A stretch of DNA of 64,000 nucleotides, taken from positions 85,580 to 149,579 of the forward strand of contig CAWDRQ010000046.1 in the NCBI GenBank assembly GCA_963804765.1. The letters are read 5' to 3'. The notes under the pieces were generated by a model. That model was given only the letters and a program-made list of their open reading frames with translations, had not been told where the DNA came from and did no database searches. This stretch comes from an uncultured Acidimicrobiaceae bacterium. Its GTDB lineage: Bacteria; Actinomycetota; Acidimicrobiia; Acidimicrobiales; Bog-793. Of this stretch, positions 11,261-63,861 are shown in pieces. The first letter of the stretch is position 1, and each line of letters opens with the position of its first letter. Made by a program: the position numbers and the translations under genes.

Positions 11261-15836
<4,576 letters not shown>

Positions 15837-16710: not shown

Positions 16711-16872
16711 ACATCGAGCGTAACCGCCTGTCGCACCGCTGCGGCGAACATGTGCGCCAAGACAGGAGCCCGGTACCAAGTCTGTGCCCGCTCGGACCCG
16801 CAATGCTCGGAGATCCTCGGGACCCAGGCGCGCCAAGGCCCGCGCCCTTGATCCCGCCATAGGATCGCCAGC

Positions 16873-17728: not shown

Positions 17729-17782
17729 GGCCGACCGGGTTCCCCCGAGGTCCCTCAGGGCTGCTCAGGTGGCCTCGTCGGC

Positions 17783-32793: not shown

Positions 32794-32836
32794 CAGCGAC
32801 TGCGCGAGTATTTCCGACCGGACTGCGGAGCTGCGC

Positions 32837-33793: not shown

Positions 33794-34003
33794 TTCGCTC
33801 CTGTCTGGCGCTACCGCAGTCGAAAACGCCTGTCACGCAAGCCTGCGTGGCATTGATCCTCTCTTCAAGAGAATACCAGAGCCCCTCGCGGATCCTCCGG
33901 CCTCCTCGTGCTGTGCACGCGACCGATAGGCTCGCAACCTGTCCAGCGAGTTCGTCGACCAGTCACCCACGGTGAAGCCGGTCGCGGGAAGTGAGGTACC
34001 CAC

Positions 34004-37328: not shown

Positions 37329-37868
37329 TCACCTCCAGGCTGCCCGCAACTTCGCCCAGCTGTCGCCCAGGGCTTCGGGAAGGACCCGAACCCCGGCGAC
37401 CGTTGTCATGAAGTTCGTGTCGCCGATCCATCGCGGAACGATGTGCACGTGCAAATGAGCGGGGATCCCCGCTCCCGCGGCCCGTCCGAGGTTCACGCCG
37501 AGATTCATGCCCTCGGGGCGATAAGCGGCCTTCACTGCCGCCACGGCGCCGTAGACACCACTAGACAGCTCGACGGCCTCCTCCGGCTCCAGCTCGCAGA
37601 GATCGCCCACGTGCCGCATCGGGAGAACCATCACATGGCCCGGGGAGTACGGGAAGGCATTGAGCAGCACCACGGTCGACGAACCCATCCAGAGCACATG
37701 TCGTACCTCGTCGGGCTCGCCGGATCGGATGATCCCGCAAAACACGCACGTCGCCTCTGGTTCGCCCGCGGAGGTTGGAACGCCACTCGGGTCGCTCGTG
37801 TCACCTGCGTCCCCGAACGAGCTCACGTAACTCGATCGCCAGCCCGCCCAGAGGTGGTCGAGACTCAC
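37329..37868 (-). CDS. HIT family protein (Rv2613c-like Ap4A phosphorylase type)
   Basis: AGIPAHLHVHIVPRWIGDTNFM histidine triad, CVFCGI, and a 4-nt overlap with the thrS stop. Same position as Rv2613c downstream of thrS. Confidence 0.85.
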   Translation of the reverse strand: MSLDHLWAGWRSSYVSSFGDAGDTSDPSGVPTSAGEPEATCVFCGIIRSGEPDEVRHVLWMGSSTVVLLNAFPYSPGHVMVLPMRHVGDLCELEPEEAVELSSGVYGAVAAVKAAYRPEGMNLGVNLGRAAGAGIPAHLHVHIVPRWIGDTNFMTTVAGVRVLPEALGDSWAKLRAAWR

Positions 37869-39880: not shown

Positions 39881-39967
39881 CTGAACCACTCCTCGTACTG
39901 GCGACACCGGGTCGCACTCCGGAGAAGCTCAGCCTACCGGCCCGCTAGGACCGCTTTGTGGGTTGCA

Positions 39968-46122: not shown

Positions 46123-47998
46123 TCACCCGGCCCGGCGGCCTGCGTGGACTTCGCGTGCTTCGCCTCCGAACCGGTCGCGCTTGGACTGCGCGGTGCGCCT
46201 TCCTCGCTCAGCCTGGTCGAGCAGAACCTTGCGCAACCGGACGCTGGCCGGGGTGGCCTCGACGCACTCGTCCTCGCTGATGAATTCGAGCGCCTGCTCG
46301 AGCGAGAGGAGCCTGGGTGGAATCAGGCGGACCAGCTCCTCGGCCGTGGAGGAGCGCACGTTGGTGACCTTGCGCTCCTTGGTCGCGTTGACGTCCATGT
46401 CCTCGGGGCGGGCGTTCTCTCCGATGATCATTCCTTCGTAGACCTCGACGCCGGGCCCGACGAACAGCGCGCCGCGATCCTGGAGGTTCATCAGGGCGTA
46501 GGTGGTCGTCAAACCGCTCCTGTCGGCGACCAGCGAGCCCGACGCACGCGTGCGCAACTCACCGTGCCACGGCTCGAAGCGGTCGAATATGTGATGCAAC
46601 ACTCCGGTTCCGCGGGTCTCGGTCAAGAACTCGGTGCGAAAGCCGATCAAGCCGCGAGACGGTACCGAGTAGTCGACCCTCGCCCAGCCGGTGCCGTGAT
46701 TGACCATCTGTACGAGGCGCCCCTTGCGCAGCGACAGCAGCTGGGTGACTACGCCGAGGAACTCCTCGGGCACGTCGATCGACACCGCCTCCACCGGCTC
46801 GTGCAGCTTGTCGCCGATCATCCGGGTCACAACCTGCGGCTTGCCCACGGTGATCTCGAACCCTTCTCGGCGCAGCATCTCGACTAGAACGGCGAGCTGC
46901 AGCTCACCGCGGCCTTGTACCTCCCAGGTATCGGGTCGCTCCGTGGTCAGCAGGCGAATTCGAGACGTTCCCGACAAGCTCTGCATCAAGGCGGTTCTTG
47001 AGCAGCCTGGCGGTTACCTTGGTGCCTTCGGTCCCCGACAGGGGCGAAGTGTTGATGCCGATCGTCATCCCGAGGCTGGGCTCGTCGACGATGAGAACCG
47101 GAAGCGGACGCGGGTCGTCGGGGTCCGAGAGCGTCTCGCCGATCGTGACCTCGGACAACCCGGCCACGGCGATGATCTCGCCCGGGCCGGCCTCGGCGGC
47201 ATCGACTCGGTCCAGCCCCTCGGACACGTACAGCTCGGCAACCTTGAATCGCTCCACATTTCCGTCGGCCCGGCACCACGCAACCTGCTGCCCGCGTCGG
47301 ATCGTGCCATGCAGGACACGGCAGATCGCGAGACGACCGACATAGGCCGACGCGTCGAGGTTCGTGACCAGTGCCTGCAGCGGATGATCCGGCTCAAATG
47401 TCGGAGCGGGAATGTAGTCGTAGATGACCTTGAACAACGGCTCAAGGTCTGTTCCTGTCACCGTGGGGTCGAGCGAGGCTCGTCCCGCCCTGGCATTGCA
47501 GTACACGATGGGGAACTCGATCTGTTCCTCGTCCGCGTCGAGGTCCATGAAGAGCTCATAGACGTCGTCCACCACTTCCTTGGGACGCGCGTCGGGGCGG
47601 TCGATCTTGTTGACCACGAGCACGACAGGCAGGCGCCGCTCGAGCGCCTTGCGCAACACGAAGCGGGTCTGGGGCAAGGGACCTTCGCTCGCGTCCACAA
47701 GCAGGAGAACGCCGTCGACCATCGCGAGAGCTCTCTCGACCTCTCCGCCGAAGTCGGCATGCCCCGGAGTGTCCACGATGTTGAACTTCACGCCTCCGTG
47801 GCGCACGGAGGTGTTCTTCGCCAGGATGGTGATCCCCTTCTCGCGCTCGAGATCGATCGAGTCCATGACGCGCTCATTGACTTCTTGATTCACGCGGAAC
47901 ACTCCCGATTGCCACAACATCCCGTCGACAAGGGTCGTCTTGCCGTGGTCGACGTGAGCGACGATCGCGAGGTTGCGGAAGTTGGCGCGCGAGAGCAT
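46123..47998 (-). pseudogene. typA: translational GTPase TypA/BipA, split by a net +1 frameshift near 46955-46963
   Basis: ORF 46904..48043 reads [22 protein letters not shown]...[14 protein letters not shown]...NKID...[22 protein letters not shown], then leaves frame. ORF 46123..46989 continues [35 protein letters not shown]... Removing one A from tcgAAttc gives NVSIRLL. ATG at 47998. Confidence 0.88.
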
Positions 47999-49490: not shown

Positions 49491-50291
49491 TCAACGCTCG
49501 CGGCGCCAGGTCCCGAGCAACACCGCCGCGTACCGTAAGCCGTAGAGGGCGTTGGTGCCCTTCTTCGACTGGCCCGACGCCCGCTCGTGCCACACCGCCG
49601 GGCGTTCGGCAACCCTCCACCCCCGCTTGAGTGATGTGACGAGCAGTTCGGCGGTCTGGTACTGGTCCTGCTCCAGCCGGCCCTTCACGTCCGCCAGCAT
49701 CGTCGCCCGCAGGGCCCGGAAGCCGTTGGAGGTATCAGTGAGATGAGCGCCGGTCAGCAGGTTCATGAGCGCCGCGAAGAACACCACGCCCAACTGGCGG
49801 TACCGGTCTGCCGTCCTGTCAACGCCCAAACGCCTGGAGGCCACGACGAAGTCCGCCTCGTCGTCCACTAGCGGCTGAAGCAGCTGCGGCATCTCGGCGG
49901 GGTCGTTCTGGCCGTCGGCATCAAAGGTGACCACGTACTGGGCTCCCAACGCCACGCAAAGGTCATAGCCGACACGCAGCGCCACCCCGTGACCCAGGTT
50001 CACCGGGAACACGAAGGTGACGGCCCCCTCTTCCATGGCGACACGGACGGTCTCGTCCTGGCCGCCGTCGACGATCACGAGCGGTGTGACCTCGAGCCCG
50101 CACGCCACTTTCGGCACCCGCCTCAGCACGTCTCCGATGTTCGCCTCCTCCTCATAGGCGCAGATCAGACCAACCACCGCAGTCAGCTTGAGGTCACCGT
50201 ACCGTTCGTCGAATTTCTGGCGCCCGAGCTCGATGACGAGCCGCTGAAGCGCCCGCAGGCGGGTCTGCTGATGGTCCGAGATGTTTGCCAT
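49491..50291 (-). CDS. glycosyltransferase family 2 (soluble polyprenyl-phosphate glycosyltransferase-like)
   Basis: GLICAYEEEANIGDVL...VIVDGGQDET...VVTFDADGQNDP (DxD-type). No obvious TM segment. Divergent from the GT-C candidate at 50789. Confidence 0.78.
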   Translation of the reverse strand: MANISDHQQTRLRALQRLVIELGRQKFDERYGDLKLTAVVGLICAYEEEANIGDVLRRVPKVACGLEVTPLVIVDGGQDETVRVAMEEGAVTFVFPVNLGHGVALRVGYDLCVALGAQYVVTFDADGQNDPAEMPQLLQPLVDDEADFVVASRRLGVDRTADRYRQLGVVFFAALMNLLTGAHLTDTSNGFRALRATMLADVKGRLEQDQYQTAELLVTSLKRGWRVAERPAVWHERASGQSKKGTNALYGLRYAAVLLGTWRRER

Positions 50292-50408
50292 GCCTGGAGC
50301 TCCTGAGGTTCAGCCGACGTGCGGACTGGCGAAGACCTGGTGCGAGGTGGGTTGCAGGTGCCGAAGCGATCCCGGAAAACACCCTTTCATTCCCAACCCG
50401 CACCTCTC

Positions 50409-50728
50409 TCACATACTGCTGGCCGACGGTATTTCTCGAATTGCCATATGGCCTTCGGGCAGCGGATCGTACCCGTGAACGGTGGCATGGCTCTTCTCGG
50501 AGATGACCTTATCGCCCGTGATCGTGGCGTGAAGGCCGTGCACTACATGGACTCCCGGCGCGCTAGCTCGCAACCGACGTCCTCGTGTGCCAGACTCGCG
50601 ATCCTGATGGAGGCCGGTTCGGACGCTGCTGGGTGCATCCCGGTGACCACGATACGCGTTAGTCGTGGAGCGGCATGCTCGTCGTGCCCAACGCCAGGTT
50701 CGCGACGGGCAGGTCGCTCCCGTGTCAT
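50409..50728 (-). pseudogene. possible decayed or frameshifted small gene in the 0.5-kb divergent spacer
   Basis: Two adjacent minus-strand frames show coding-like GC3. The first reads MTRERPARREPGVGHDEHAAPRLTRIVVTGMHPAASEPASIRIASLAHEDVGCELARRESM* (stop 50543). The second reads VHVVHGLHATITGDKVISEKSHATVHGYDPLPEGH...* (stop 50409). Joined length 320 nt, which is 2 mod 3. No family recognised. Confidence 0.25.
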
Positions 50729-50788
50729 GTGTGAGAGCTTCGGCCGCCACCTTGGACGGGTTGACCGCCAGTTCTGCGGCGACACACC

Positions 50789-52417
50789 GTGATCCGCCCG
50801 GTTTCGCCGAGCCGGCAGGCACCAACGAGCCGCTGGGCGGTGTGGCTGACGGTAGCGGCGCTGATCGTCTTTCCCTTCCTCTACGGCCTGGTCGCGCTCC
50901 ACCGAGGTGAGGACGCGGACTGGGACCTGATGAACTACCACTTCTTCGATCCGTTCTGGGTCCTCCTCAACCACCAGCACGACATCATGCCGGCACAGCT
51001 GCAGACCTATTACAACCCCGTCCTCGACATCCCCTTCTACTTCGTGGCACGCCATCTCTCAGCCCGCACGGTCGCGTACGGCATCGCCTTCGTGCAGGGT
51101 CTCTCCTTTCCGATCCTGTACCTGATCGCACGGGTGTTCACGCGCCGCCGGTTGCTGGCTCTGGCAGGGGCCGGCCTGGGCATCTTCGCCGCGGGGGCGT
51201 TTTCGGAAATCGGAAGCGTGATGGGTGACACCCTCACCGCGCCGTTCCTCCTCGGTGGGATCCTGCTCGGTCTTCACGCCTGCCGTTCACCCGCCCATGG
51301 TGTAGCCAGGCGCGTGCTCGCGTTGGCTGCGGCCGCAGGCGTCGTGTCCGGGTTCGGCTCCGGCCTCAAGCTCTCCGCGTTCCCCTTCACCGTGGCCACC
51401 GCCATCGCTTTCTTGGTGATCGGCCTGCCGTGGGCTCGCCGGCTGGCATTGGCGTTCGCCTGTGGTTGTGGTGCGCTCGTGGGCCTCCTGGTCTCCTACG
51501 GATGGTGGGGCTACGAGCTCGCTGTGCGGTGGGGAAGCCCGTTGCTCCCCTACTTGAACCAACTCTTCGCCTCGCCTTACGCACCGCTCGCGTCGAACAC
51601 AGACGCCAGACGGTTGCCGCATGGAGTACTGCAGGCGCTCTTCTACCCGTTCTTGTGGACGCTGCAGCCTCTGCGCACCAGCCCCCAGACCTTTCGAGAG
51701 CTCACCATGCCGGCGCTGGAACTCGTCCTGCTGCTGCTGGCCGCCAAGGGTGTCGCCCTGACCGCGCGGCGACGTGCGTGGCGCCCGATCTTCGGCTCCG
51801 ATGCCGAGCGTTTCATCGTGCTGCTCGCAATCGTCACCTACTTGATCTGGGTGGACGTCTTTGCCATCTATCGCTATCTGGTCCCCCTCGAGATGCTCTC
51901 GTTCGTGCTCCTGGGCGTCTGCGTCCGGCGCTTGTTTGCCCCGGCAAGGCCGTGGCCGATCGCAGCCGCGTTGCTGGTGGCGATAGTCGTGGCGTCCCTT
52001 GTCACCGAGCAGACCGACAGCATCGGTCGCACGGCGTGGGCACAGCGAGACATCACTGTGTTGGTGCCGGCGTCCATCGCGTCGCCGGCGGCATTCTTGA
52101 TGATTGGTTCGAACCCCGATGCCTACGTGGTCCCCTACTTCCCGAGCGACGACTTCTTCGCGCGGATCCAAGGCAACATCCGACCGACTCCGACAGTCGA
52201 GGCTCGGATCAAGAAGGACCTCCGGGGCTATGGCCACGTCTACGTCTTCTTCGTGGACCCGAACGCTTACCCCAGCAACGCCGCGCTACTTGCCCAGGCG
52301 AGACCTCCGTGGGGGACCTACGGCTTCCGGGTGAATGCGAGCGGCTGTGTCGAGATCCCGACCAAAATCGGCGCGGTCGGCCAGTCGGTGCACGCGTGCC
52401 CGCTCGAGCGGATCTGA
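50789..52417 (+). CDS. polytopic membrane protein, candidate GT-C-fold glycosyltransferase
   Basis: 542 aa with at least 10 hydrophobic helices. An acidic first loop (HRGEDADWDLMNYHFFDP) follows TM1, as in polyprenyl-phosphate-sugar-dependent GT-C enzymes. Has a C-terminal soluble domain. GTG start. Confidence 0.6.
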   Translation: MIRPVSPSRQAPTSRWAVWLTVAALIVFPFLYGLVALHRGEDADWDLMNYHFFDPFWVLLNHQHDIMPAQLQTYYNPVLDIPFYFVARHLSARTVAYGIAFVQGLSFPILYLIARVFTRRRLLALAGAGLGIFAAGAFSEIGSVMGDTLTAPFLLGGILLGLHACRSPAHGVARRVLALAAAAGVVSGFGSGLKLSAFPFTVATAIAFLVIGLPWARRLALAFACGCGALVGLLVSYGWWGYELAVRWGSPLLPYLNQLFASPYAPLASNTDARRLPHGVLQALFYPFLWTLQPLRTSPQTFRELTMPALELVLLLLAAKGVALTARRRAWRPIFGSDAERFIVLLAIVTYLIWVDVFAIYRYLVPLEMLSFVLLGVCVRRLFAPARPWPIAAALLVAIVVASLVTEQTDSIGRTAWAQRDITVLVPASIASPAAFLMIGSNPDAYVVPYFPSDDFFARIQGNIRPTPTVEARIKKDLRGYGHVYVFFVDPNAYPSNAALLAQARPPWGTYGFRVNASGCVEIPTKIGAVGQSVHACPLERI

Positions 52418-52451
52418 ACGAGAGCGAGAGCTCCCCCGCCTCGTCCTGCCT

Positions 52452-53396
52452 CTAGAACCTCACCGAGTTCGTTTGCCCCCACCTAGAGTGCGCGGCCGCG
52501 CGAGCGCGGGCTTCGAGCTCGGCGATGCGGCGGTCCCGGGCTCGGATCAGCTCCTCCTGCGCGCCGACAAAAGTCTCGAGTTCTGCCACGTGGGCGCTCC
52601 GCGCCTTCAGCTCCGCCTCGAGATGACGAACGTAGCCCTCGACACGATTGAGGTTCTCCGAAACGAAGTTGTCGAGCACGCTCGCCGGCGCGAGCAACGG
52701 CACGAGGCCCGGCTCTTCACAGCGTGCGTAGAACCGGTTGATCCCGTCGAACGAAGCGAAGAGATATCCGGCTGCCAACAGCTGCGGCTCCCAGCCCGAA
52801 TGCGACTGCTCGTGCGACCACGGATTGGTCGCCTCCACGACAATCACCCTCGGACGCCAGCGGGACCAGTCGTTTCCCAACAGCACGTCGCTCTCGCCGC
52901 CCTCCACGTCCACTTTGAGGAACGAGATCTCTCCGGAGCAGTGCTCGTCGAGCACGTCCGCGAGCGTTCGGAGCTGGACCGCTCGCTCTCGCACGGGGCG
53001 GCCGGCCCGGATGTAACCCTTGCCCACCTCCGGGTCCGTGCTCGACAGGCCGCGTTCATCACCCACGACATAGAGGGTCGCCTTGCCGGGGAGACTTCCG
53101 AGAGCCGCCTCGATCACGGCGTCGCGCGGCCGAGCACGGCGCAGTTCCGCTGCCTCCTCCGCCAGAGGCTCGACATCGATACCGCTCCAGCCGGCCTCGT
53201 AGAAGTGCCTCGTCACCGAGCCCAGATATGGAGAGGAAGCCCCGACGTCGACGTAAAGGGCGGCAACGCCGCCGGTGCAAAGGGCGCGGTGCAAGACGAC
53301 GTCCTCCGCGTTGGCTGCGTGCGACACTATCCGTTCGGGTTCGGAGCCCCCCGCACGGACCTTCCTTCGCGAGTCCTCAGGGCGGTCAGCGGCCAC
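52452..53396 (-). CDS. FkbM-family SAM-dependent methyltransferase with a C-terminal coiled-coil tail
   Basis: YVDVGASSPYLGSVT...GIDVEPL...SFLKVDVEGGESDVLLG...VIVVEA (FkbM pattern). The last ~60 aa are heptad-like (VEGYVRHLEAELKARSAHVAELETFVGAQEELIRARDRRIAELEARARA). I chose GTG at 53396; the ORF track extends to 53504. Confidence 0.75.
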   Translation of the reverse strand: MAADRPEDSRRKVRAGGSEPERIVSHAANAEDVVLHRALCTGGVAALYVDVGASSPYLGSVTRHFYEAGWSGIDVEPLAEEAAELRRARPRDAVIEAALGSLPGKATLYVVGDERGLSSTDPEVGKGYIRAGRPVRERAVQLRTLADVLDEHCSGEISFLKVDVEGGESDVLLGNDWSRWRPRVIVVEATNPWSHEQSHSGWEPQLLAAGYLFASFDGINRFYARCEEPGLVPLLAPASVLDNFVSENLNRVEGYVRHLEAELKARSAHVAELETFVGAQEELIRARDRRIAELEARARAAAHSRWGQTNSVRF

Positions 53397-53853
53397 GCCA
53401 GCCGATCGCCTTTCGAGCCAAGCGGCGCCCGAGACGCTCCAGCGCCGGTTGCCTTCCCACCTGCCGAACGATCGCGTCCACGACGCGGTAGGAGGTTCGC
53501 GCACGCATCGCGATCATCTCCTTCTCCGCCCACCGCACAGCCTTCGTGTGTTCGTCCACCTGGTGCTCCAGCTCGCGGGCATAAGCGATGCGGACTTCCA
53601 GATCTCGCTTGAGATACCCCAGCTCCGTCTCGAGGGTCTCCACTCGCTCGACCCACTCTCGAAGGCGTAGCTCCAGCTCCTGCACGAAGTCCTCCTCGAC
53701 ACTGCCCTCGTCCGAGACACGCGACCGGTCACGAGCCGCGTCTTCGGCCTCGGCGGCGCGCTGGAAGCTGAGCCAGGCCCCGTCCTCCGAGCCTTCGTCG
53801 AAAGCAAGGTCAGGGCCGGTGCTCGGCCTTCCGGGATCCGGGAGCTTCCTCAT
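53386..53853 (-). CDS. coiled-coil protein (no enzymatic motif)
   Basis: 155 aa with an acidic N-terminal third, then QELELRLREWVERVETLETELGYLKRDLEVRIAYARELEHQVDEHTKAVRWAEKEM. The ATG overlaps the upstream stop (ATGA at 53850-53853). Confidence 0.6.
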   Translation of the reverse strand: MRKLPDPGRPSTGPDLAFDEGSEDGAWLSFQRAAEAEDAARDRSRVSDEGSVEEDFVQELELRLREWVERVETLETELGYLKRDLEVRIAYARELEHQVDEHTKAVRWAEKEMIAMRARTSYRVVDAIVRQVGRQPALERLGRRLARKAIGWRGR

Positions 53854-55866
53854 ATGCCTGCCCTTTGTTCAGGTCGCGGCTCTTGGGCCATACGGCCCCC
53901 CACGACTTCTGCCAGGATAGAACCCCAGGTGACTCTCGACGCTTCGGAACGACGAAGTGCGTCGAGCGCCTCGATCTCGGCCCGCTGATCCTCCCAGGCC
54001 ACACGATCGGTGAGCAAGGAGACGAGCCCGCGGGCGAAATCCCTCGGATCGTCCGCGACCAACAACGCCGCGGTGCCCCGGAGATCAATGCCTTCGGCGC
54101 CGACGCTCGTGGCTACGGTCGGCACACCGTACTGGAGCGCCTCGACGGTCTTGATCTTGACGCCGGCCCCATACCTGAGCGGCACGATGCACGCCCGCGT
54201 CCGCCCGTAGAAGGCGGCCATGTTGCTCACCTGGCCTTCGAAGGAGATGCCACGACCTGCGATATCGAGAGCCACCTTCGGCGGTGCCGGGCCTGACACG
54301 TGTACGCGGATCCATGGAACTCTGGCCCGGACGATCGGCAGCACCTCACGTGCGAACCATACAAGTCCGTCGACGTTCGGCGATTCCGGCCCAGCCAGCC
54401 AGCCCGCCACCAGGAACACGTCCGAGCGGTCGGCGAACCCTGCCGGCGTCAGCTCCAGTTCGCTGCGCCATGGCTCGACCACGAGCGGCTCGCTTGCGCC
54501 GAGCGCGGCGAAGTGCTGCCGCTTCGTCGGCCGAAACGCAGACGATCGTGTCGACCGAACGCGCCATCTCGGCTTCGACCGTGCGGGCTTCATCAGCGGC
54601 GCTGAACAACGCCTCGCGAGCCGCGCCCTCGCTGGCGAGCTCGGCCTGGGCTTCCAGACGGCGATGGAACAGGGCCTCCGCGTCGTAGCACAGGTGTGCC
54701 TGGGGTTGCAGCTCGCGAACCATCGACCCATAGCGCTCGAAGTTGTGCGGACGCGAGATGATCACCACCTCGTAGCGTGCCGACCGCCGGGAGAGGTGCT
54801 CGTTGAGCGGCTCGGTGACGACGCCGACACCCAAGGCTCCGAGCACATCGGGGTCGTCGACGATTCCGATCGTCGGAAAGACCGAAACTCGATAGCCGGC
54901 CGCGGATATCTCCTGCACCACGTCGAACATCCGCGAATATCCAGAGCCGAGTCGCGAATCCGGCATCCGGTCGTCGATCACCAGCACCCGTGGCGGGGAC
55001 CCCATTGCGAGATGGATGGCCTCTTCGACGGAGTCACCGTCTATCGGCTCGGCGTGTGTAGGTCCCTCGAACACCTTCGGCCATCGCTCCAGCAGCTTCC
55101 TGCGATGCGTGAGGCAGAGGTATTCCTTGTATCGTTGGGTTGAGCTCCTCGACTCGAAATGGCGCACGACCGACCGCGGCTCGTAGAGCACAATGTTGCC
55201 GCGCTCGGCGATCCTGAGGCAGAAGTCGACGTCCTCGTAGTAGGCCGGGAAGTACCCCTCGTCGAGACCCCCCAGCTCGTTCCAAATGTCACGACGGACG
55301 AGGAAGTTCAGTGCGCTGCAGTACTCGACACGACGGCGAAATCGCAGCGAGACAGCGTCACCGGGCAGATCCCGACCTACGCCGTAACTCGAGCCGTCCT
55401 TCCAGATGATCGAGCCGGCTTCCTGCAATGTCCCGTCGGAGAGCAGGACTCGGCCACCCACCGCACCCACTCCCGGCGTTTCGGCTGCCTCGACGAGAGG
55501 TGCCAACCAGCCCGGCTCAGGCTCGGCGTCGTCGTTCAGCAGGACCAGATAGACACCACGGGCCTGGTGTGCCCCAAGGTTGCATCCGCCCGCGAAACCC
55601 CGGTTCACTCCGGAGCGGACGATGTTGACACCCCTCACCCCGAACGAGAGGTCGTCCGACACGCTTGGCTCGACTCCGTTCTCGACCACGATGACCTCGA
55701 AGGGCACGTCCTTGGTGTTCACGGCGAGCGCACGGAGACACCCCAGCAGGTCCGGTGCAGCACCCGTTGCCACGATGATCACCGAGACGATCGGGTCTAG
55801 CGACGGATTGAAATGCACCACTCCAGCCGATGTGGACTGCACAAGCTGCTCCTTCACGGCGAGCAC
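53850..55866 (-). pseudogene. bifunctional GT2 - GT4 glycosyltransferase, split by a net +1 frameshift near 54512-54525
   Basis: ORF 54346..55866 has an N-terminal GT2 domain (VSVIIVATG...VIVVENG...VNRGFAGGCNLG...LLNDDAEPEPGW), then the first Rossmann half of a GT4/GT1 domain (PRVLVIDDRMPDSRLGSGYSRMF...). It leaves frame at ..IVCVSADEAA. ORF 53850..54731 supplies HFAALGASEPLVVEPW...FLVAGW...GAGVKIKTVEALQYGVPTVAT. Combined length 2017 nt, which is 1 mod 3. Confidence 0.8.
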
Positions 55867-56030
55867 GCGACTCGCGTTGACTTAGCATTTGTTGTAGCAC
55901 AACTCCCCTTCTCAGCTGAACTCTTCCGCGCATCCAGACGAGTCGTGCGAACGGCCTGCGCCGTCGCACGCCGCCGGTGACACCCTTTTCGGGCGAGTGT
56001 GCGCACCCCGAGCGCTGTCGTGGGTCTGGA

Positions 56031-57890
56031 TCACTCGACGTGTCGGGCGAACGACTTGAGGAGGATCAGCCACACATGAAGGACGGCGGTTCCCTGGCGC
56101 ATCACGGCCGTGCGAAGAAGAACCGGTCGGTACGGTCCGAGGTATTGAAAAGCCATCTCGAACTGGGCGCCGGTGGTGCTGAGAAGAAGCAATTCGGCTG
56201 GACGCCTGCTCGCGAGCATCGCGGCGTCCGGGGCAGTGATCACCCCGGGATTGCTCGGAAGCGAATCGAAGCGGCCGTGGTAAATGCCGACCGTCTCGGT
56301 GAGCACCCCGCTCGGGTCATAGGGGAACCACATCAACAACTGCTCGCCTCGATAGGTGGCGTTGCCAACAAAGGACGGGAGATCGGCGCTGATCTGGTAC
56401 CAGTCGATCAGGAAGCTCGCGCTTCCACCGAGAGCCGTGGAATATGGGGCCGGCGGGTCGGCTGCATGGGCCATACCCGAGAGCGGCGGGTGCGTAGGGC
56501 TTGGAGCGACCGTGAGGACGAGCAAGGACCCTGCCACGGCGACGACGGTCGTCCCCACCGCGAAGCCGAAGCCGACTCGGAAGGCCGAGCGCTCTGCACT
56601 GCCGCGGTAACCAAACCGCAGGGCTCCGGTGAACACGACTGGCACCGCGGCCAGGACTGCCCCGGTCGGCAGCCACCCGAAGGCCGGAACGTGCGGGTAA
56701 GCCTCGTACGCGAGAGGGACGGCAAGAAGGAGGAGGGCGGGTAGCCAACGCGCCAGGCGGCGTGTCGACAACGACCGGCAGACCTCGGCAAGCGCAATGG
56801 CCAGAGTCAGGCAGATCACACCCCAAAGCGTCGAGGAGAAGTAGTACATCTCGAGGGACTCGACGTGGTAGCCGAACTGCAGGTAGGCGAAAACGACGAA
56901 CTGCGCGGCGCACACGAAACCGACGAACAGCTGGGGCGTCGGGATGGCACGCAGCTTGCGCGCGAATGTGGCTGCGAACAGGACGATGACCGAAGGGGGA
57001 ACCAACAGGTACGCCACATAGGGAGCCCAGCGCCAGTTGGAGGAGTGGAACAACCGTATCTGGGACGGCTGGTTCAAGTAGGCGGCCGCGGCGAAGGTCG
57101 GTCGGATGAAGTCGTACTGGCCGAAAATCAGGCCCGACGCGACCACGAGGACCAGCGTCACCAGGATGCTGACACCCGCCAGCACGGCGCCGTCTCGAAG
57201 CATGTGTCGGCGGTCTCGCAAGAGTCGCACGGCCGCGTATACCGCGATCGAGGTGCCTGCCAGCACGATACCCATGCCGTGGGACCAGATCGCCATCGTG
57301 AACAGCAGACCCGCGAGCACGAGGCAAACTGAGCGCCACCGGCCCCGACAAGGCATCGCAAGGCAAGCAACGGCGGCGACTATATAGGAGACGACCGCCG
57401 AGTCCGGGTAGTCGGTTCCCCACGCAGCGATGACGACGGGTGAGCTGAGCACGGCAACGATCGCGAGGACGCCGGCGGGGATTCCATACAGCTGCCTCAG
57501 CAAGCAGTATGCGGGCACAATGGCGATCAGAGCGAACAGGTAGCGAGTGGCGAAGAAACCCGGAACAGCGCCGAACGCGACATAGAAGAGGTGCGCGAGG
57601 ACGAGGAATCCTACTTGGGCGCCTTCGCGCAGTCGTGCCGTCGGTCCCAGAGCGGCGGAGTACCGCATGAACATCTCGCGCGGAGCAACGATGTAAATCG
57701 TGTGCATGCTGGGGTCCGGCAAGACGACGGGCGCCATGCCCCGGATCCTCAACACGAAGTAGGCGACTAGCGGTGAGAGCCCAACCGCCGCAGCCTCTGA
57801 GACCAGCCCCAATCCACGGTGACGGCGACGGTGACTTGGCGCGTGACCAACAAAGGTCCGGACGACGGGCGAGCTATCGGTCACGAGCAC
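56031..57890 (-). CDS. large polytopic membrane protein, candidate GT-C-fold glycosyltransferase
   Basis: 619 aa with at least 12 hydrophobic helices and a C-terminal ~150-aa soluble region. Divergent from the GT2 gene at 57961. No motif-level family assignment possible by eye. Confidence 0.55.
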   Translation of the reverse strand: MLVTDSSPVVRTFVGHAPSHRRRHRGLGLVSEAAAVGLSPLVAYFVLRIRGMAPVVLPDPSMHTIYIVAPREMFMRYSAALGPTARLREGAQVGFLVLAHLFYVAFGAVPGFFATRYLFALIAIVPAYCLLRQLYGIPAGVLAIVAVLSSPVVIAAWGTDYPDSAVVSYIVAAVACLAMPCRGRWRSVCLVLAGLLFTMAIWSHGMGIVLAGTSIAVYAAVRLLRDRRHMLRDGAVLAGVSILVTLVLVVASGLIFGQYDFIRPTFAAAAYLNQPSQIRLFHSSNWRWAPYVAYLLVPPSVIVLFAATFARKLRAIPTPQLFVGFVCAAQFVVFAYLQFGYHVESLEMYYFSSTLWGVICLTLAIALAEVCRSLSTRRLARWLPALLLLAVPLAYEAYPHVPAFGWLPTGAVLAAVPVVFTGALRFGYRGSAERSAFRVGFGFAVGTTVVAVAGSLLVLTVAPSPTHPPLSGMAHAADPPAPYSTALGGSASFLIDWYQISADLPSFVGNATYRGEQLLMWFPYDPSGVLTETVGIYHGRFDSLPSNPGVITAPDAAMLASRRPAELLLLSTTGAQFEMAFQYLGPYRPVLLRTAVMRQGTAVLHVWLILLKSFARHVE

Positions 57891-57960
57891 TGGACGACCC
57901 TACCAAGCGGCGCCAGTGCGGCGATGTCGAGGTTCGAGAGAGCGTGAGTACACTCGCAGC

Positions 57961-58728
57961 GTGCTCAACGGGAAAAAGGTCACGGTCGTACTTCCTGCCT
58001 ATAACGCCGGGGAGACGCTGAAACGGACCGTAGACGAGCTCGACCGTAGCGTCGTCGACGAGGTCTTGTTGGTGGATGACGCGAGCAGCGACGACACGAT
58101 CGAGCAGGCAGAGCACCTGGGCCTCATCTCGATTCGCCACGACAGGAACCTGGGCTACGGTGCGAATCAGAAGAGCTGCTACAAAGCCGCACTCGAGCTC
58201 GGCGCAGACATCGTCGTCATGCTCCATCCGGACTACCAGTACTCGCCGCTGCTCGTGCCTGCCTTGGCGGCGATGATCGCCTACGGGCAGTACGACTTCA
58301 TTCTCGGGTCGCGGATCCTGGCGCAGAACTCGATCGCCCGCGGGATGCCGGCCTACAAGTACGCGGCCAACAGGGCCCTGACACTCTGGGAGAACCTTGT
58401 GCTACATCAGAAGCTGTCGGAGTATCACACGGGCCTGCGGGCCTACAGCAGAAGCCTGCTGGAGGTCCTGCCGTTCGAGCGGAACTCAGACGACTTCGTC
58501 TTCGACAACCAGATCATCGTTCAAGCGGTCTTGTTCGGGGCGAAGATCGGCGAGCTTTCCTGTCCGACGCGCTATGCAGCGGACTCGTCTTCGATCAGCT
58601 TCGCTCGAAGCGTCCGCTACGGGCTGGGCGTGCTGCAGACCACCGCCCAGTACAGGTTGCACGTGAGCGGGGTCAAGCGCTACGGCTTCCTCGATTTCGC
58701 TCCCCGGGCAATGGCGGCTGCCGCCTGA
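57961..58728 (+). CDS. glycosyltransferase family 2 (dolichyl/polyprenyl-phosphate glycosyltransferase-like)
   Basis: KVTVVLPAYNAGETL...VLLVDDASSDDT...NLGYGANQK...VMLHPDYQY (DxD-type D-Y-Q). GTG at 57961 gives the usual short N terminus; the ORF track starts at GTG 57916. Confidence 0.8.
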   Translation: MLNGKKVTVVLPAYNAGETLKRTVDELDRSVVDEVLLVDDASSDDTIEQAEHLGLISIRHDRNLGYGANQKSCYKAALELGADIVVMLHPDYQYSPLLVPALAAMIAYGQYDFILGSRILAQNSIARGMPAYKYAANRALTLWENLVLHQKLSEYHTGLRAYSRSLLEVLPFERNSDDFVFDNQIIVQAVLFGAKIGELSCPTRYAADSSSISFARSVRYGLGVLQTTAQYRLHVSGVKRYGFLDFAPRAMAAAA

Positions 58729-59566: not shown

Positions 59567-61525
59567 TCAGACCGTCTCCACGAACGCCTCTGTGAACTGG
59601 CTCTCGTACAGCTCCGCGTAAAAGCCCTGCCTGTCGATGAGCTCGGCATGGCTGCCCTGCTCGACGATCCGACCGGCGTCCATCACGACGATCGTGTCCG
59701 CGTTGCGGATGGTCGAGAGCCGGTGAGCGATGACGAAGCTCGTACGCCCCTGTCGCAACCGGGCCATCGCTTTTTGGATGAGGACCTCTGTGCGCGTGTC
59801 GACGCTGCTCGTCGCCTCGTCGAGGATGAGGATCGTCGGGTTTGCGACAAACGCACGAGCGATCGTGATGAGCTGCTTCTGCCCGGCCGAGATATTGGAG
59901 GCATCCTCGTCGACGACGGTATCGTACCCCTCCGGCTGAGTACGAACGAAGTGGTCGACATGCGCCGCTTCCGCGGCGGCAATGATCTCCTCGCTCGTGG
60001 CACCTGCGCGCCCGTAGGCGATGTTGTCCCGGATCGTCCCGGTGAACAGCCACGTGTCCTGAAGAACCATGCCGAATGTCCGCCTCACGTCGTCACGGAC
60101 GAGGTCGCGCGCGTCCACGCCATCGAGCAGGACGCGCCCCGAGTCGATCTCGTAGAAACGCATGAGAAGGTTGACAATCGTAGTCTTGCCCGCACCGGTC
60201 GGGCCGACGATCGCGACGGTCTGACCAGGCGAGACCGACAGACTGAAGTCGGTGATCAGCGGCTGTTCGGGCTCGTACTGGAAGCTCACGTGCTCGAGAT
60301 CGACTCGTCCGTCCGGGTCGAGGAGCTCTGCCGGCTTCGGGCAGTCCGGTTCCTCTTCGTCGGCGTCCAGCAAGGCGAAGACCCGCTCGGCCGAGGCAAC
60401 CCCCGACTGCAAGAGGTTCATCTGGCTAGCCACCTGGGTGATCGGCATGGTGAACTGGCGGGAGTACTGGATGAAAGCCTGCACGTCGCCAAGTGAGAGC
60501 GCGCCCGACGCGACACGGTATCCACCGACGACCGCTATCACCACATAGTTCAAGTTGGCGAGGAACTGCATCGCGGGCTGGATGGCCCCTGAAAGGAACT
60601 GTGCGCGAAAGCTGGCCTCGTAAAGGGGCTCGTTCTGATCGTCGAACTCCTCTATGGACGCGCCGCTCCGCCCGAATATCTGCACGAGAGCGTGCCCGGT
60701 GTACATCTCCTCGACGTGACCGTTCAGCGCTCCAGTGCGCTCCCACTGGGCGGCGAACTGTATCTGGGAACGGCGCGCGACAAAGAACGTCACGACAATC
60801 GACAGCGGAATTGTTATGAGCGAGACGGCGGCCAGCAACGGGCTGATCCAGAACATCATCGCGACCACACCGAGAATCGTGAGCGCCGAGCTGAGCAGCT
60901 GGCTCAAGCCCTGCTGCAGGGTCGTGGTGACATTGTCGATGTCGTTGGTGACACGACTCAGGATGTCGCCATGGGAGTGCCGATCGAAGTACCGCAACGG
61001 GAGCCGGGCGAGCTTGGACTCCACGTCCTCGCGCATGCGGTACACGGTCCGCTGCGCGACCCCAGCCATCACGTAACCCTGAGCCCAGTTGAGCATGGCT
61101 CCGAAGACGTACACGAGCGCAGCGAGGCCGAGCAGCTTGCCGAGATGACCGAAATCGACTCCCGCGCCGGGTGTGATCGACATTCCCCTGATCATGTCAG
61201 CGAGCTGTCCTTCGCCCCGCGAGCGCAGGAGGGCCATCGCCTGCTCCTTGGACATCCCTGCGGGCAGGCGCTTTCCTATGACCCCGTTGAACAGGACGTC
61301 GGTCGCGTTGCCGAGGATCTTCGGACCGAAGACCGTGAAAGCCACGCTCGCAGAGGTCATCACTATCACGAAAGCAATGCGGATCCTCTCGGGCCGCAGT
61401 CGTCGCCCGAGACGCCGGACGGTCTTGCGGAAGTCCTTCGGCCGCTCCACCGGCATGGACATCCGGCCTGGTCCGCCGAAGCCTCGTCCCGGCCCGGGTC
61501 GCTGCCGCGCGCCAGGTGTGCTCAT
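59567..61525 (-). CDS. ABC exporter, fused permease/ATPase (half-transporter 2; consensus Walker B, deviant signature)
   Basis: Six-TM type-I exporter domain. Walker A GPTGAGKTT, signature NISAGQKQ (deviant from LSGGQ), Walker B ILILDEATSSVD. Confidence 0.9.
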   Translation of the reverse strand: MSTPGARQRPGPGRGFGGPGRMSMPVERPKDFRKTVRRLGRRLRPERIRIAFVIVMTSASVAFTVFGPKILGNATDVLFNGVIGKRLPAGMSKEQAMALLRSRGEGQLADMIRGMSITPGAGVDFGHLGKLLGLAALVYVFGAMLNWAQGYVMAGVAQRTVYRMREDVESKLARLPLRYFDRHSHGDILSRVTNDIDNVTTTLQQGLSQLLSSALTILGVVAMMFWISPLLAAVSLITIPLSIVVTFFVARRSQIQFAAQWERTGALNGHVEEMYTGHALVQIFGRSGASIEEFDDQNEPLYEASFRAQFLSGAIQPAMQFLANLNYVVIAVVGGYRVASGALSLGDVQAFIQYSRQFTMPITQVASQMNLLQSGVASAERVFALLDADEEEPDCPKPAELLDPDGRVDLEHVSFQYEPEQPLITDFSLSVSPGQTVAIVGPTGAGKTTIVNLLMRFYEIDSGRVLLDGVDARDLVRDDVRRTFGMVLQDTWLFTGTIRDNIAYGRAGATSEEIIAAAEAAHVDHFVRTQPEGYDTVVDEDASNISAGQKQLITIARAFVANPTILILDEATSSVDTRTEVLIQKAMARLRQGRTSFVIAHRLSTIRNADTIVVMDAGRIVEQGSHAELIDRQGFYAELYESQFTEAFVETV

Positions 61526-63252
61526 GCGGCCTCCTCACCGAGCTGGGATGTGACAATCTCCCTGTACTCGGGGCAAGTCGAGAGAAGCTCCTCGTGTTTG
61601 CCGATCCCCACGACCCGCCCGTCGTCCAGCACGATGATGCGGTCCGCGTGCAGGATCGTGCTCACACGCTGCGCCACGATCAGCACGGTCGAGTCCTTGG
61701 TCTCCGATCGCAGGGCGCCGCGGAGTTTCGCGTCGGTGGCCGCATCCAGCGCAGAGAAGCAATCGTCGAACAGGTAGATGGCCGGCCTCTTCACGAGCGC
61801 CCGTGCGATGGACAGCCGCTGGCGCTGGCCGCCGGACACGTTCGTGCCACCCTGGGTGATCTGTGCCTCCAGCCCACCCGGCATTGCGGAGACGAACTCG
61901 CTCGCCTGGGCGACCGCGAGCGCCTGCCACAGCTCCTCGTCGGTCGCGTCGGGCCGGCCAAAGTGGAGGTTCTCCGCGACTGTGCCGCTGAACAGGTATG
62001 CCTGCTGCGGCACCATGCCTATCTTCGCCCAGAGGGCGCTACGCGCTTGGTCTCCTACGTCGACCCCATCGACGAGCACCGTGCCGCTCGTGACGTCGAA
62101 CAAGCGCGGGATGAGGTTGAGCAGCGTGGTCTTGCCCGAGCCCGTGCCACCGATGATCGCTGTCGTCTCGCCTGGTAGAAGCGAGAACGAGAGGCCGTGC
62201 AAAACGGGTTCCTCGCCCCCGGGGTAGCCGAAGACGACATCTCGCAGCTCCACGAGTCCCGCCGAGGACAGGGGGATGACGACTTCAGGCGGATCCTGGA
62301 CCGAAGGCTCAGCGCGCAGCACCTCCTCGATCCGATCGGCGCTGGCGACGGCTCGCGGCAGGAGGATCACCATCATCACGGCGATCATCACCGACATGAG
62401 GATCTGCAAGATGTAGCTGAGGAAAGCCGTCAGGTTCCCGATCGGCATGCTTCCGCTCGCGATCAGGTGGCCTCCGAACCAGAGCACGGCGACGCACGAC
62501 AGATTCATCACACCCATGACGGTCGGCAACGCCACCGCGAACATGCGATTCACCCGGAGTCCTGTGTTGGTCAGTGCCTCATTCGCGTCAGCGAACCGTT
62601 GCTGTTCCTGGCCGGTGCGGATGAACGCCCTGATCACCCGCACGCCGGTGATCTGCTCGCGAAGCACGAGGTTGACCCGGTCGATCCTGGACTGCATCGA
62701 CTTGAACAGAGGGACAGCCTTCACCATCAGGATCGAGATGACGACGAGCATCACCGGAACGACGACCACTAGGAGCGCCGACAGCCTCACGTCCTCTTTC
62801 AGCGCCATGATCACACCGCCGACGCACATGATCGGCGCCAGCACCATGATCGTGAGAGCCATCTGCAAGAACAGCTGGATCTGCTGGACGTCGTTGGTAT
62901 TGCGAGTGATGAGCGAGGGCGTCCCGAAATGGTTGATCTCCTGTGCCGAGAAGCGCTGCACCGACCTGAAGACGGCGCCCCGGATGTCCCGGCCTATGCC
63001 CATCGAGACCTTGGAGGCGAAGTACACAGCGACGATGGACATAGCTCCCACTACGAGCGTGATGCCGAGCATCCACGCCCCCGTCGTCCAGATGTAATGG
63101 ATGTCGCCCTTCTCGATACCGTTGTTGATGATGTCGGCAGTGAGATTCGGCAAATAGAGGTTCGCGACTGCTTGCACTACTAGCAGCGCGACGACCAGAC
63201 ATACCTGGCGGGTGTAGCGGCCGACATAGCGGCGCACAAGGCTTGTCAGCAC
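61522..63252 (-). CDS. ABC exporter, fused permease/ATPase (half-transporter 1; Walker B lacks the catalytic Glu)
   Basis: Walker A GGTGSGKTT, signature NVSGGQRQR, Walker B IYLFDDCFSALD (Asp in place of the catalytic Glu). 4-nt overlap with the downstream partner. Confidence 0.9.
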   Translation of the reverse strand: MLTSLVRRYVGRYTRQVCLVVALLVVQAVANLYLPNLTADIINNGIEKGDIHYIWTTGAWMLGITLVVGAMSIVAVYFASKVSMGIGRDIRGAVFRSVQRFSAQEINHFGTPSLITRNTNDVQQIQLFLQMALTIMVLAPIMCVGGVIMALKEDVRLSALLVVVVPVMLVVISILMVKAVPLFKSMQSRIDRVNLVLREQITGVRVIRAFIRTGQEQQRFADANEALTNTGLRVNRMFAVALPTVMGVMNLSCVAVLWFGGHLIASGSMPIGNLTAFLSYILQILMSVMIAVMMVILLPRAVASADRIEEVLRAEPSVQDPPEVVIPLSSAGLVELRDVVFGYPGGEEPVLHGLSFSLLPGETTAIIGGTGSGKTTLLNLIPRLFDVTSGTVLVDGVDVGDQARSALWAKIGMVPQQAYLFSGTVAENLHFGRPDATDEELWQALAVAQASEFVSAMPGGLEAQITQGGTNVSGGQRQRLSIARALVKRPAIYLFDDCFSALDAATDAKLRGALRSETKDSTVLIVAQRVSTILHADRIIVLDDGRVVGIGKHEELLSTCPEYREIVTSQLGEEAA

Positions 63253-63348
63253 CGGTCGGCTTCCCCTGGCCGCGGCTGGGCGACTGGCGGCGTTTGGCTC
63301 AGGACTCGCCTGCCTCGCGTCGGTACGGCCGCCACGACGATGACAAGG

Positions 63349-63861
63349 TCAGCCGCCACGGGCGTCTTCCAGGTCACGCTCCAATGAGGCCGCGAACCGT
63401 TCGAGCATCGACGCGAAAGCCGCGAGGTCCAATTCGTCCCAGCCCTCGAGCAGCCGGTCGAACCAAACCCGTCGGGCCTTCAGGACGCGCTCGAGTGTGC
63501 GCCGCCCGTTCGCCGTCAGCCCGATCCGGGTCGCACGGTGGTCTTCGACATCGGCGTGACGGGCCACCAACCCCTGTCGCTCCAGCTGCTGGATCTTGCG
63601 CGTGACCGTCGGCGCGTCTACGCCGAGCAAGTCGGCCAGACCCGTCACCCGAACCGATTCCCCGTGCGCGTGGAGCATGTAGAGCAGGGCTCCCCCGGCG
63701 CGGTCGATCCGGACGCCTGCCGCCTGGAGAAGGCGCTCGTGCACGCGGACCTGCCCCATCGAACGCCCGACGATCCAGAACGCCTCCCGGATCTCTTTCA
63801 CGGACTCCTTTGCCGTCTTCTGCCGGCTCTCTTCGAAGCCCACATTAGTTACTTGCGGCAT
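63349..63861 (-). CDS. MarR family transcriptional regulator
   Basis: 170 aa. Winged-HTH pattern ...LADLLGVDAPTVTRKIQQLERQGLVARHADVEDHRATRIGLTANG. Upstream of the ABC pair on the same strand. Confidence 0.88.
   Translation of the reverse strand: MPQVTNVGFEESRQKTAKESVKEIREAFWIVGRSMGQVRVHERLLQAAGVRIDRAGGALLYMLHAHGESVRVTGLADLLGVDAPTVTRKIQQLERQGLVARHADVEDHRATRIGLTANGRRTLERVLKARRVWFDRLLEGWDELDLAAFASMLERFAASLERDLEDARGG

Follow-up and report, generated by a model that had tools for sequence, protein, structure and literature searches.

A candidate variable envelope-glycan island in an uncultured Acidimicrobiaceae bacterium, with two GT2/GT-C pairs around a methyltransferase-containing core

What kind of glycan pathway is encoded when two small family 2 glycosyltransferases (GT2), two polytopic membrane proteins and a short run of core genes lie side by side in an actinobacterial genome? 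The question is raised by positions 49491-58728 of a 64,000-nucleotide stretch of contig CAWDRQ010000046.1 (positions 85,580 to 149,579 of the forward strand; assembly GCA_963804765.1) from an uncultured Acidimicrobiaceae bacterium, and this whole stretch is called the window below. On the left, the soluble GT2a diverges from the membrane protein MP-A, on the right MP-B diverges from the soluble GT2b, and between them lie a GT2-GT4 gene, a gene for a coiled-coil protein and a gene for an FkbM-family methyltransferase (Table 1). An earlier reading of the letters alone (the sequence-only reading) had taken the locus for an envelope-glycan cluster of two mirror-image pairs around a cytoplasmic core, and its pathway for one outside the textbook types. 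Gene content, protein folds, conserved motifs, neighbourhood conservation and domain fusions in relatives were established directly, and on balance we favour, with a confidence only a little above even, a variable envelope-glycan island between pfk and a MarR-ABC-ABC operon (ABC, ATP-binding cassette), which holds three separable modules of known kinds: GT2b with MP-B, GT2a with a GT-C glycosyltransferase, and the core.

The polytopic proteins and their small GT2 partners

Neither MP-A nor MP-B matched a Pfam or NCBIfam model or a PDB chain in sequence and profile searches, so only fold comparison was informative, and AlphaFold2 models were built on homologue alignments (A1 and A2) and compared with the PDB by Foldseek. 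The top 30 matches of the MP-A model (predicted local distance difference test, pLDDT, 90.4; predicted TM-score, pTM, 0.90) were all GT-C glycosyltransferases, namely ArnT, ALG9, STT3, PimE (structure 9dm5), AglB, DPY19, AftA, Emb and Pmt, and the MP-B model (pLDDT 80.4, pTM 0.85) found ArnT first (E 9e-9), followed by AglB, STT3, ALG12/9/3, EmbB and AftA. Down to a probability of about 0.9, both lists held nothing but GT-C proteins; over the two lists, the Emb matches were EmbA, EmbB and EmbC, and the Pmt matches were Pmt1, Pmt2 and Pmt4. The two models show the layout expected of GT-C proteins, in which 7-13 transmembrane (TM) helices form a polytopic core and TM1 is followed by an extracytoplasmic loop or domain, and the alignments place conserved acidic residues in the first extracytoplasmic loop of both proteins. 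In MP-A the motif D42-x-x-W45-D46-L-x-N49-Y50-H51 follows TM1 (residues 15-39) directly; among 65 distant members D46, D65, K194 and R362 are invariant and D42 is nearly so. MP-B has its invariant D59 ("LPDPSMH") after TM1 (residues 22-46). Two cysteines of MP-A, C520 and C537, are nearly invariant in the family; they sit in an alpha/beta domain at the C-terminus and would be compatible with a disulfide bond and a position outside the cytoplasm.

That the two polytopic proteins are membrane proteins of another kind, such as transporters, and not glycosyltransferases, is hardly credible. Such a reading could draw on the missing Pfam and NCBIfam matches of the window proteins and on the labels of a homologue, which is a "chromate transport protein" in one database source and an "MFS permease" in another, but Foldseek listed transporters only below a probability of 0.2 and at TM-scores of about 0.1, against a probability of 1.0 and TM-scores of 0.4-0.5 for GT-C proteins, and GT-C Pfam models (GT87, PMT_2, PMT and TMEM260) are matched by members of the two families. 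The models, the Foldseek lists and these family matches thus agree with the GT-C assignment of the sequence-only reading.

The MP-A family is large, with 2738 clusters at 50% identity (E<=1e-30) or 6273 (E<=1e-3), and only 5-8 homologues per scanned set reached GT87 or PMT_2 (GT87: 8 of 45 and 5 of 65). MP-A itself had no match to Pfam GT87 (PF09594, PimE-like) at E<=0.1. The match coordinates of the family representatives point to N-terminal extensions, and a GtrA domain (PF04138; GtrA/DPMS transmembrane), the putative flippase for lipid-linked sugars, was found in P0035 and in 3 of 65 scanned family sequences. The model-based comparison supports MP-A as a GT-C-fold glycosyltransferase from a large family, and that Pfam barely covers a GT-C family of this size is a modest novelty. 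In the MP-B family, PMT_2 (PF13231) was matched by 33 of 56 homologues with at least 50% identity. BLASTP and hhalign gave no similarity between MP-A and MP-B, which ruled out a duplicated pair, and as judged from their sequences the two belong to unrelated GT-C families.

GT2a and GT2b share 26% identity, and both are without TM helices, as, we presume, are mycobacterial Ppm1 and PpgS and human DPM1. Their best NCBIfam models were PpgS, dolichyl-phosphate hexose transferase, AglJ and ArnC, with PpgS on top for both (81 and 60 bits against a cut-off of 370). We take PpgS (Rv3631) with Rv3779 to be a second mycobacterial synthase/GT-C pair. The best solved relatives of GT2a were ArnC (9hwj, 9bhc, 8vxh) and the Pyrococcus furiosus DPMS 5mlz, and those of GT2b were DPMS 5mlz and ArnC. 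An exact-sequence look-up of GT2a among public assemblies found no record. This closeness to PpgS, DPMS, AglJ and ArnC supports, at class level, the prediction that both are polyprenyl-phosphate sugar synthases, and it sustains the earlier suggestion that they make lipid-linked sugar donors.

Then the pairing of small GT2s with GT-C proteins was followed through other genomes. Of 80 genome loci, 47 have a GT2b orthologue (62-90% identity) beside an MP-B homologue, mostly in divergent orientation. The loci span Acidimicrobiales, Streptosporangiaceae and Solirubrobacterales; most lack the core genes, and multiple copies occur in several genomes. The GT2b homologue search gave at least 8000 matches, with generic names only. 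On the other side, of some 70 distant MP-A homologues about 25 have a small GT2 of the GT2a/GT2b type as a neighbour, and in two relatives (L019 and L031) MP-A is swapped for a YfhO-family polytopic protein (up to about 900 aa; 898-aa open reading frame, ORF), while GT2a (90-92% identical) and the core are retained. GT2/GT-C linkage is thus conserved in the manner of three-component glycosylation systems. GT2b and MP-B would together form an autonomous two-gene module, and the GT-C partner of GT2a seems to be an exchangeable cassette, MP-A in the window and YfhO-like in two relatives. The adjoining GT2s and the family members with a GtrA domain suggest, indirectly, that MP-A and MP-B may use a polyprenyl-phosphate-linked donor.

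The core genes and a proposed cytoplasmic polymerase-terminator

Genes of the window were called from the ORF listing, codon-position G+C and Pfam/NCBIfam scans, and all gene positions of the sequence-only reading were recovered. Its overlapping stop and start codons in the core were also seen: the GT2-GT4 stop and the coiled-coil gene start have ATGA in common, and the end of the coiled-coil gene overlaps the FkbM start (GTG at 53396) by 11 nt. The MP-B gene has the orientation of the core genes and lies 165-190 nt upstream of the GT2-GT4 gene, and the MP-A and FkbM genes are convergent with a gap of 34 nt.

The GT2-GT4 fusion that had been described stands as far as its two domains go, and it is a single 663-aa frame in 18 of 20 relatives, but in the window it is not one open frame and consists of two ORFs (54346-55866 and 53850-54731). 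A tblastn search with the intact 663-aa orthologue of L001 put the frame switch between 54523 and 54506, and DNA alignment against L001 and L003 indicated one surplus C at about 54507/54508 (TTCGCCGCGCTC versus TTCG-CGCGCTC). The broken copies in relatives (L014 and L019) are on long-read contigs of metagenome-assembled genomes (MAGs), and their break sites differ from that of the window. The typA/bipA GTPase gene of the window (46132-47998, minus strand) is also split by a frameshift, near 46961-47043, and is intact with 627 aa in L001. Because typA/bipA is split too, and because the other broken copies are long-read MAGs with different break sites, an assembly indel is the probable cause, roughly twice as likely as real pseudogenisation, and the two frameshifts together suggest an indel-prone, long-read assembly. 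An ORF at 26066-26968 may be another broken gene; its Peptidase_M48 match spans only profile positions 4-91 of 186, and an opposite-strand ORF competes with it over the same span.

In the intact protein of relatives, a GT2 and a GT4 module, that is, the at least two glycosyltransferase modules predicted for a polymerase, lie in one chain. The nearest NCBIfam model was MftF for the GT2 module (110 bits, cut-off 280) and TIGR03087 for the GT4 module. The coiled-coil protein has no TM segment, its gene adjoins the GT2-GT4 fusion in all close relatives, and its heptad score was 1.15 against a shuffle mean of 0.81, a value reached by 1 of 200 shuffles. The FkbM protein has a C-terminal coiled coil of its own (approximately residues 238-299 of 314), also with a heptad score above the shuffles. 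In relative L027, one 1168-aa ORF contains Methyltransf_11/31, GT2 and GT4 domains by Pfam, with a coiled-coil-like stretch between methyltransferase and GT2, and this single-chain domain order is the same as that of Klebsiella O7 ORF6. We propose that the 155-aa protein is a spacer or adaptor and that FkbM may be a chain terminator or modifier. Domains, overlapping genes and coiled coils therefore bear out the earlier view that the middle genes resemble cytoplasmic chain synthesis plus methylation, and a coiled coil split over a separate protein and an FkbM-type methyltransferase tail is a modest novelty.

A core that makes an intracellular methylated oligo- or polysaccharide, similar to the methylmannose or methylglucose polysaccharides of mycobacteria or to the mycofactocin glycan, and thus no envelope glycan, seems to us quite improbable. 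It would explain why MftF, the mycofactocin glycosyltransferase, is the top match of the GT2 module, and it would suit the presence of a methyltransferase with no exporter nearby, but the score for MftF falls far short of the cut-off, mft genes are absent, the core is steadily linked to GT-C genes, and the coiled-coil architecture fits exported-glycan systems.

Table 1 Features of the glycan locus in the window
Feature	Position	Strand	Description
GT2a	49491-50291	-	266 aa, soluble GT2; PF00535 E 6.5e-13
Conserved non-coding core and 61-codon upstream ORF	50587-50792	+	Possible leader or regulatory element
MP-A	50789-52417	+	542 aa, polytopic; GT-C fold by AlphaFold2/Foldseek
FkbM-family S-adenosylmethionine methyltransferase	52452-53396	-	PF05050 E 2.6e-25; TIGR01444
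Coiled-coil protein	53386-53853	-	155 aa; heptads at about residues 45-122
GT2-GT4 gene	53850-55866	-	N-terminal PF00535 and PF13641, C-terminal PF13692; frameshifted here
MP-B	56031-57890	-	619 aa, polytopic; GT-C fold, PMT_2/ArnT-like
GT2b	57961-58728	+	Soluble GT2; PF00535 E 4.9e-19

Island variation and comparison with known systems

The closest relatives of the window are metagenome-assembled Acidimicrobiaceae and Acidimicrobiales genomes of bog, fen and soil origin, and about 20 related Acidimicrobiaceae contigs (L001-L003, L009-L018, L089-L095) keep the whole eight-gene order, with pfk on one side and DUF998, ABC, ABC and MarR on the other. DUF998 occurs only in some relatives; a role for it as the flippase is not supported, since several relatives that keep the whole cluster are without it. 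Between MP-B and pfk the content can change. L027, L029, L033 and L053 have a GT2-GT4-like gene directly downstream of MP-B. In L168 the equivalent place is taken by a 902-aa GT2-GT4 protein, for which no methyltransferase match is on record, and a 620-aa membrane protein follows. The single-chain gene of L027 is located at 11781-15287 and is followed by a 704-aa polytopic protein without a Pfam match (15371-17485); in L019 the YfhO-family protein in the place of MP-A is at 15499-18195, in the same MP-B-to-pfk slot. These alternative cassettes resemble serotype-like variation, and cassette-like island variation in uncultured Acidimicrobiaceae is again a modest novelty.

More distant loci separate the modules. 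In L004, whose MP-A homologue is 61% identical, the fusion, the coiled-coil gene, FkbM and MP-A are kept and MP-B is absent, with a 4-nt overlap between FkbM and the start of MP-A. At 28% MP-A identity, L147 has an operon of GT2-GT4 fusion, small GT2 and MP-A-like GT-C, and in L117 the order differs only in that an additional PMT_2-like GT-C precedes MP-A; further GT2s, a Wzx-like flippase and an epimerase come next. In L170 (MP-B homologue with 53% identity) the GT2/MP-B pair was observed inside a cluster of DUF2079, DUF2142, two GT2s and a GT4-methyltransferase fusion, which also holds LPG_synthase_TM, a possible flippase, and RmlA/B/C/D-like genes. From the neighbourhoods of the pair loci, the swaps, L027, L004 and L117/L147, we infer that GT2b/MP-B is autonomous, and that the core and the GT2a/GT-C cassette are functionally linked and form the variable part of the island. 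The earlier picture of a mirror image, "twice over", is not upheld, since the GT-C families are unrelated and distributed independently; the two pairs are better seen as a lineage-specific juxtaposition.

The same distribution bears on whether the pairs act on the core polymer at all. They could instead serve O-glycosylation of secreted or membrane proteins, of the Ppm1/Pmt kind, or elongation of PIM-derived lipoglycans (PIM, phosphatidylinositol mannoside), of the Ppm1/PimE/Mpt kind, and their adjacency to the core would then be that of a mere glycan-gene island. We consider this unlikely, although it deserves more weight than any other alternative discussed here. GT2b/MP-B lacks core genes in most loci and has several copies per genome, the MP-B family matches PMT_2, the MP-A family matches GT87 (the PimE family) and finds PimE 9dm5 by Foldseek, and the window has PgsA1-, PatA- and PimA-like genes in mycobacterial-type synteny, all of which speak for it. 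But MP-A stays with the fusion, and sometimes with FkbM, across large distances (L004, L106, L117, L147), with the overlap at the MP-A start in L004; the MP-B homologue of L170 is inside an rml/glycosyltransferase polysaccharide cluster; and the PMT_2 and GT87 matches are weak and are absent for MP-A and MP-B of the window.

For the two pairs, the nearest known scheme is three-component glycosylation, in which a lipid-sugar synthase, a flippase and a GT-C enzyme work together (PMC11127046, PMC8035078, PMC13390465), as in GtrB/GtrA/GtrC of Shigella and Salmonella, CsbB/GtcA/YfhO of Bacillus and Listeria, GacI/GacL of streptococci and Citrobacter ORF15/14/12, and ArnC/ArnT and Ppm1/PimE are further GT2/GT-C pairs of the known extracytoplasmic scheme (PMC11127046, PMC8035078). 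In the window, as in those systems, a GT2 predicted to charge polyprenyl phosphate adjoins a polytopic GT-C that would act outside the membrane, some MP-A relatives have the GtrA domain, and YfhO-family proteins replace MP-A in two relatives. The differences are that scans of window ORFs found no dedicated flippase gene (GtrA, SMR, MATE or Wzx), that GtrB, CsbB and ArnC have C-terminal TM helices which GT2a and GT2b do not have, and that the GT-C families are others, MP-A outside Pfam and MP-B only PMT_2-like. Mycobacterial Ppm1 with PimE/Mpt (GT87) is a comparison system within the actinobacteria (PMC3485146). Like this pair and PpgS/Rv3779, the window combines soluble GT2 synthases of about 250 aa with GT-C enzymes, PpgS is the best model for both GT2s, and PimE is among the fold matches of MP-A. 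However, the PpgS scores are far below the cut-off, MP-A and MP-B miss the GT87 model, and the mycobacterial genes are not in divergent pairs beside a polymerase-terminator.

For the core, the nearest scheme is the polymerase-terminator, in which a coiled coil parts the terminating methyltransferase or kinase from the glycosyltransferase modules and the modules are variably split (PMC11231755, PMC3482155); examples are WbdA/WbdD of E. coli O8/O9a and K. pneumoniae O3/O5, ORF6 of K. pneumoniae O7 and WbbB of O12 (PMC11231755, PMC3482155). The likeness to WbdA/WbdD lies in a polymerase of several glycosyltransferase modules with a coiled-coil-attached methyltransferase, and L027-type relatives, like O7 ORF6, unite methyltransferase, coiled coil, GT2 and GT4 in a single polypeptide; the modules are variably split among polypeptides as among Klebsiella serotypes. 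Unlike the WbdD/CgnL-like methyltransferases, that of the window is FkbM-type and has no kinase domain with it, the coiled coil is shorter and divided over the methyltransferase tail and the separate 155-aa protein, neither a WecA-type primer enzyme nor a Wzm/Wzt transporter with carbohydrate-binding module was found nearby, and the host is a monoderm actinobacterium.

Taken together, the locus appears by these analogies to be three-component-type extracytoplasmic glycosylation plus a coiled-coil-ruler polymerase-terminator, both of textbook kinds, and so a new example and not a new pathway. The view of the sequence-only reading that the pathway is non-textbook is not supported, as the GT2/GT-C pairs fit the first scheme and the dual glycosyltransferase with coiled coil and methyltransferase fits the second. 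Neither of the two outcomes that it had named as refuting it was seen: the membrane proteins are not transporters, and the locus does not match characterised arabinogalactan, lipoarabinomannan or rhamnan loci.

Under the island reading, the mechanism could be as follows. GT2b would load a nucleotide-sugar-derived sugar onto polyprenyl phosphate at the cytoplasmic face, a flippase, for which the window has no candidate, would move the lipid-linked sugar outward, and MP-B would hand the sugar, outside the membrane, to an acceptor in the envelope by way of the conserved Asp59 loop after TM1. The GT2-GT4 protein, the 155-aa coiled-coil protein and FkbM would form a cytoplasmic polymerase-terminator complex, whose two glycosyltransferase modules would alternate in extending a polyprenyl-linked chain; FkbM, spaced off by the coiled coils, would methylate the chain, most likely capping its non-reducing end, and the methyl cap would stop growth and set chain length. 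GT2a and MP-A would be a second lipid-sugar synthase/GT-C pair, which finishes or decorates the core glycan outside the membrane. In this scheme, donors, acceptors, capping as opposed to internal methylation, and the physical complex are all inferred.

Several points weigh against this reading. The coiled coils were called by a crude heptad score alone, and at about 60-78 residues they are short for a ruler. The methyltransferases of WbdD and O7 are not of the FkbM family, whose members also methylate internal sugar residues. MP-A homologues frequently stand alone (L005, L008), and the GT2-GT4 gene is frameshifted in the window. The scores of GT2a and GT2b are so far under the NCBIfam equivalog cut-offs that the donor sugar is not assignable and the assignment stays at class level. 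Finally, no flippase, Wzm/Wzt, phosphoglycosyltransferase or sugar-nucleotide gene was found in 64 kb.

The last point agrees with the sequence-only reading, which had reported no Wzx/Wzy, Wzm/Wzt, priming or nucleotide-sugar genes: none was found in the Pfam scans, which covered most larger ORFs directly and about 41.8-48 kb through precomputed Pfam of the syntenic L001, small ORFs and 28.2-29.5 kb being unscanned. For a polymerase-terminator this means that neither a Wzm/Wzt transporter nor a polyprenyl-phosphate primer enzyme was found at the locus in these scans. Primer, exporter, flippases and sugar-nucleotide synthesis are presumably encoded elsewhere, and their absence from the locus is a weak argument, since in relatives genes of these kinds occur close by (Wzx-like in L117; LPG_synthase_TM and rml in L170).

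The absent genes are what the sequence-only reading built on when it suggested a non-canonical pathway. Spelled out as one integrated pathway, the core would supply a lipid-linked primer or oligomer, and the two GT-C proteins would do the main polymerisation or the en-bloc transfer outside the membrane, with no need of Wzx/Wzy or an ABC system. This is distinctly less likely than the protein or lipoglycan alternative. No canonical export or priming gene was found in 64 kb, and both GT-C polymerases (Emb, Aft, Mpt) and oligosaccharyltransferases (STT3, AglB) exist and are represented among the Foldseek matches. But the two halves of the locus are distributed independently, a YfhO-type protein can replace MP-A, the combination of coiled coil, methyltransferase and dual glycosyltransferase marks cytoplasmic polymerisation, relatives have Wzx-like or LPG_synthase_TM genes, and the local absence itself counts for little.

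A bolder extension of the island reading would let MP-A found an unclassified GT-C family (at least 2700 clusters at 50% identity) that works directly with a split coiled-coil/methyl-cap terminator in monoderm actinobacteria, so that a GT-C and not a Wzt-type ABC transporter receives the methyl-capped glycan, with expression coupled to the 61-codon upstream ORF. We give this proposal only slight credence; if true, the coupling of MP-A to the terminator would be a new way to couple chain termination to export and attachment.

The upstream element, flanking genes and significance

The GT2a|MP-A intergenic region has 497 nt and includes an invariant core of about 35 nt (TGTGCCAGACTCGCGATCCTGATGGAGGCCGGT) in 16 relatives, also in those with YfhO-like replacements. 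After this core comes the 61-codon upstream ORF (ATG at 50607; MEAGSDAAGCIPVTT...), whose stop overlaps the GTG start of MP-A. Its length is kept and its N-terminus MEAG(S/P)DA is conserved in 16 relatives. Stop codons are rarer in it than in the other two frames, yet its G+C at third codon positions shows no coding bias. An Rfam scan of 47-64 kb gave no match, RNAalifold on the conserved intergenic core gave invariant pairs only and no covariation, and a promoter/terminator scan gave nothing informative. The element may be a leader or regulatory element. An ORF at 50319-50792 was tried as a hidden GtrA-like flippase and rejected, being neither hydrophobic nor coding-like, with a G+C of 0.60-0.65 at all three codon positions; the G+C of the window is 64-70%.

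Beyond GT2b, a MarR regulator and two half-transporters of ABC_membrane+ABC_tran type occupy 59567-63861 (minus strand); the two ABC genes (59.6-63.3 kb) were called from precomputed Pfam of L001 plus tblastn. They are probably a drug-efflux-type operon, and adjoin GT2b/MP-B throughout Acidimicrobiaceae and not in other classes. The pair is an unlikely glycan exporter given its ABC_membrane type, its own MarR operon and its Acidimicrobiaceae-only linkage to MP-B.

Elsewhere in the window, 17783-39928 has a PIM-type synteny: thrS (37865-39928), HIT (37329-37961), a PgsA1-like CDP-alcohol phosphatidyltransferase (32837-33832), a PatA-like acyltransferase (31894-32955) and a PimA-like GT4 (27035-28153), followed in order by yebC, ruvC, ruvB, yajC and secDF. 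We take this thrS-to-secDF order to be Mycobacterium-like, and the genes suggest that the Acidimicrobiaceae host makes PIM-type glycolipids. The PatA-like gene is separated from the PimA-like one by genes for a PAS-PAS-PAS-LuxR regulator (29600-31408, minus strand) and for two small Ala/Ser/Thr-rich proteins (28321-28764 and 28805-29470, minus strand), which have N-terminal hydrophobic segments and are apparently secreted.

Our literature search for Acidimicrobiia envelope glycans gave nothing relevant. Acidimicrobiia are abundant in peat and soil, and the island is a concrete, testable gene set for their little-described envelope glycans. It does not overturn current pathway concepts, but the architecture of coiled coil, methyltransferase and dual glycosyltransferase, so far studied in Gram-negative O-antigens, evidently reaches actinobacteria. 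Biochemical assignment of the MP-A family would probably give a new CAZy GT-C family and better annotation for thousands of "hypothetical" proteins. With fixed flanks and swapped polymerase-terminator/GT-C cassettes, the island is like an O-antigen-type variable locus, which hints at surface-glycan diversity in uncultured actinobacteria.

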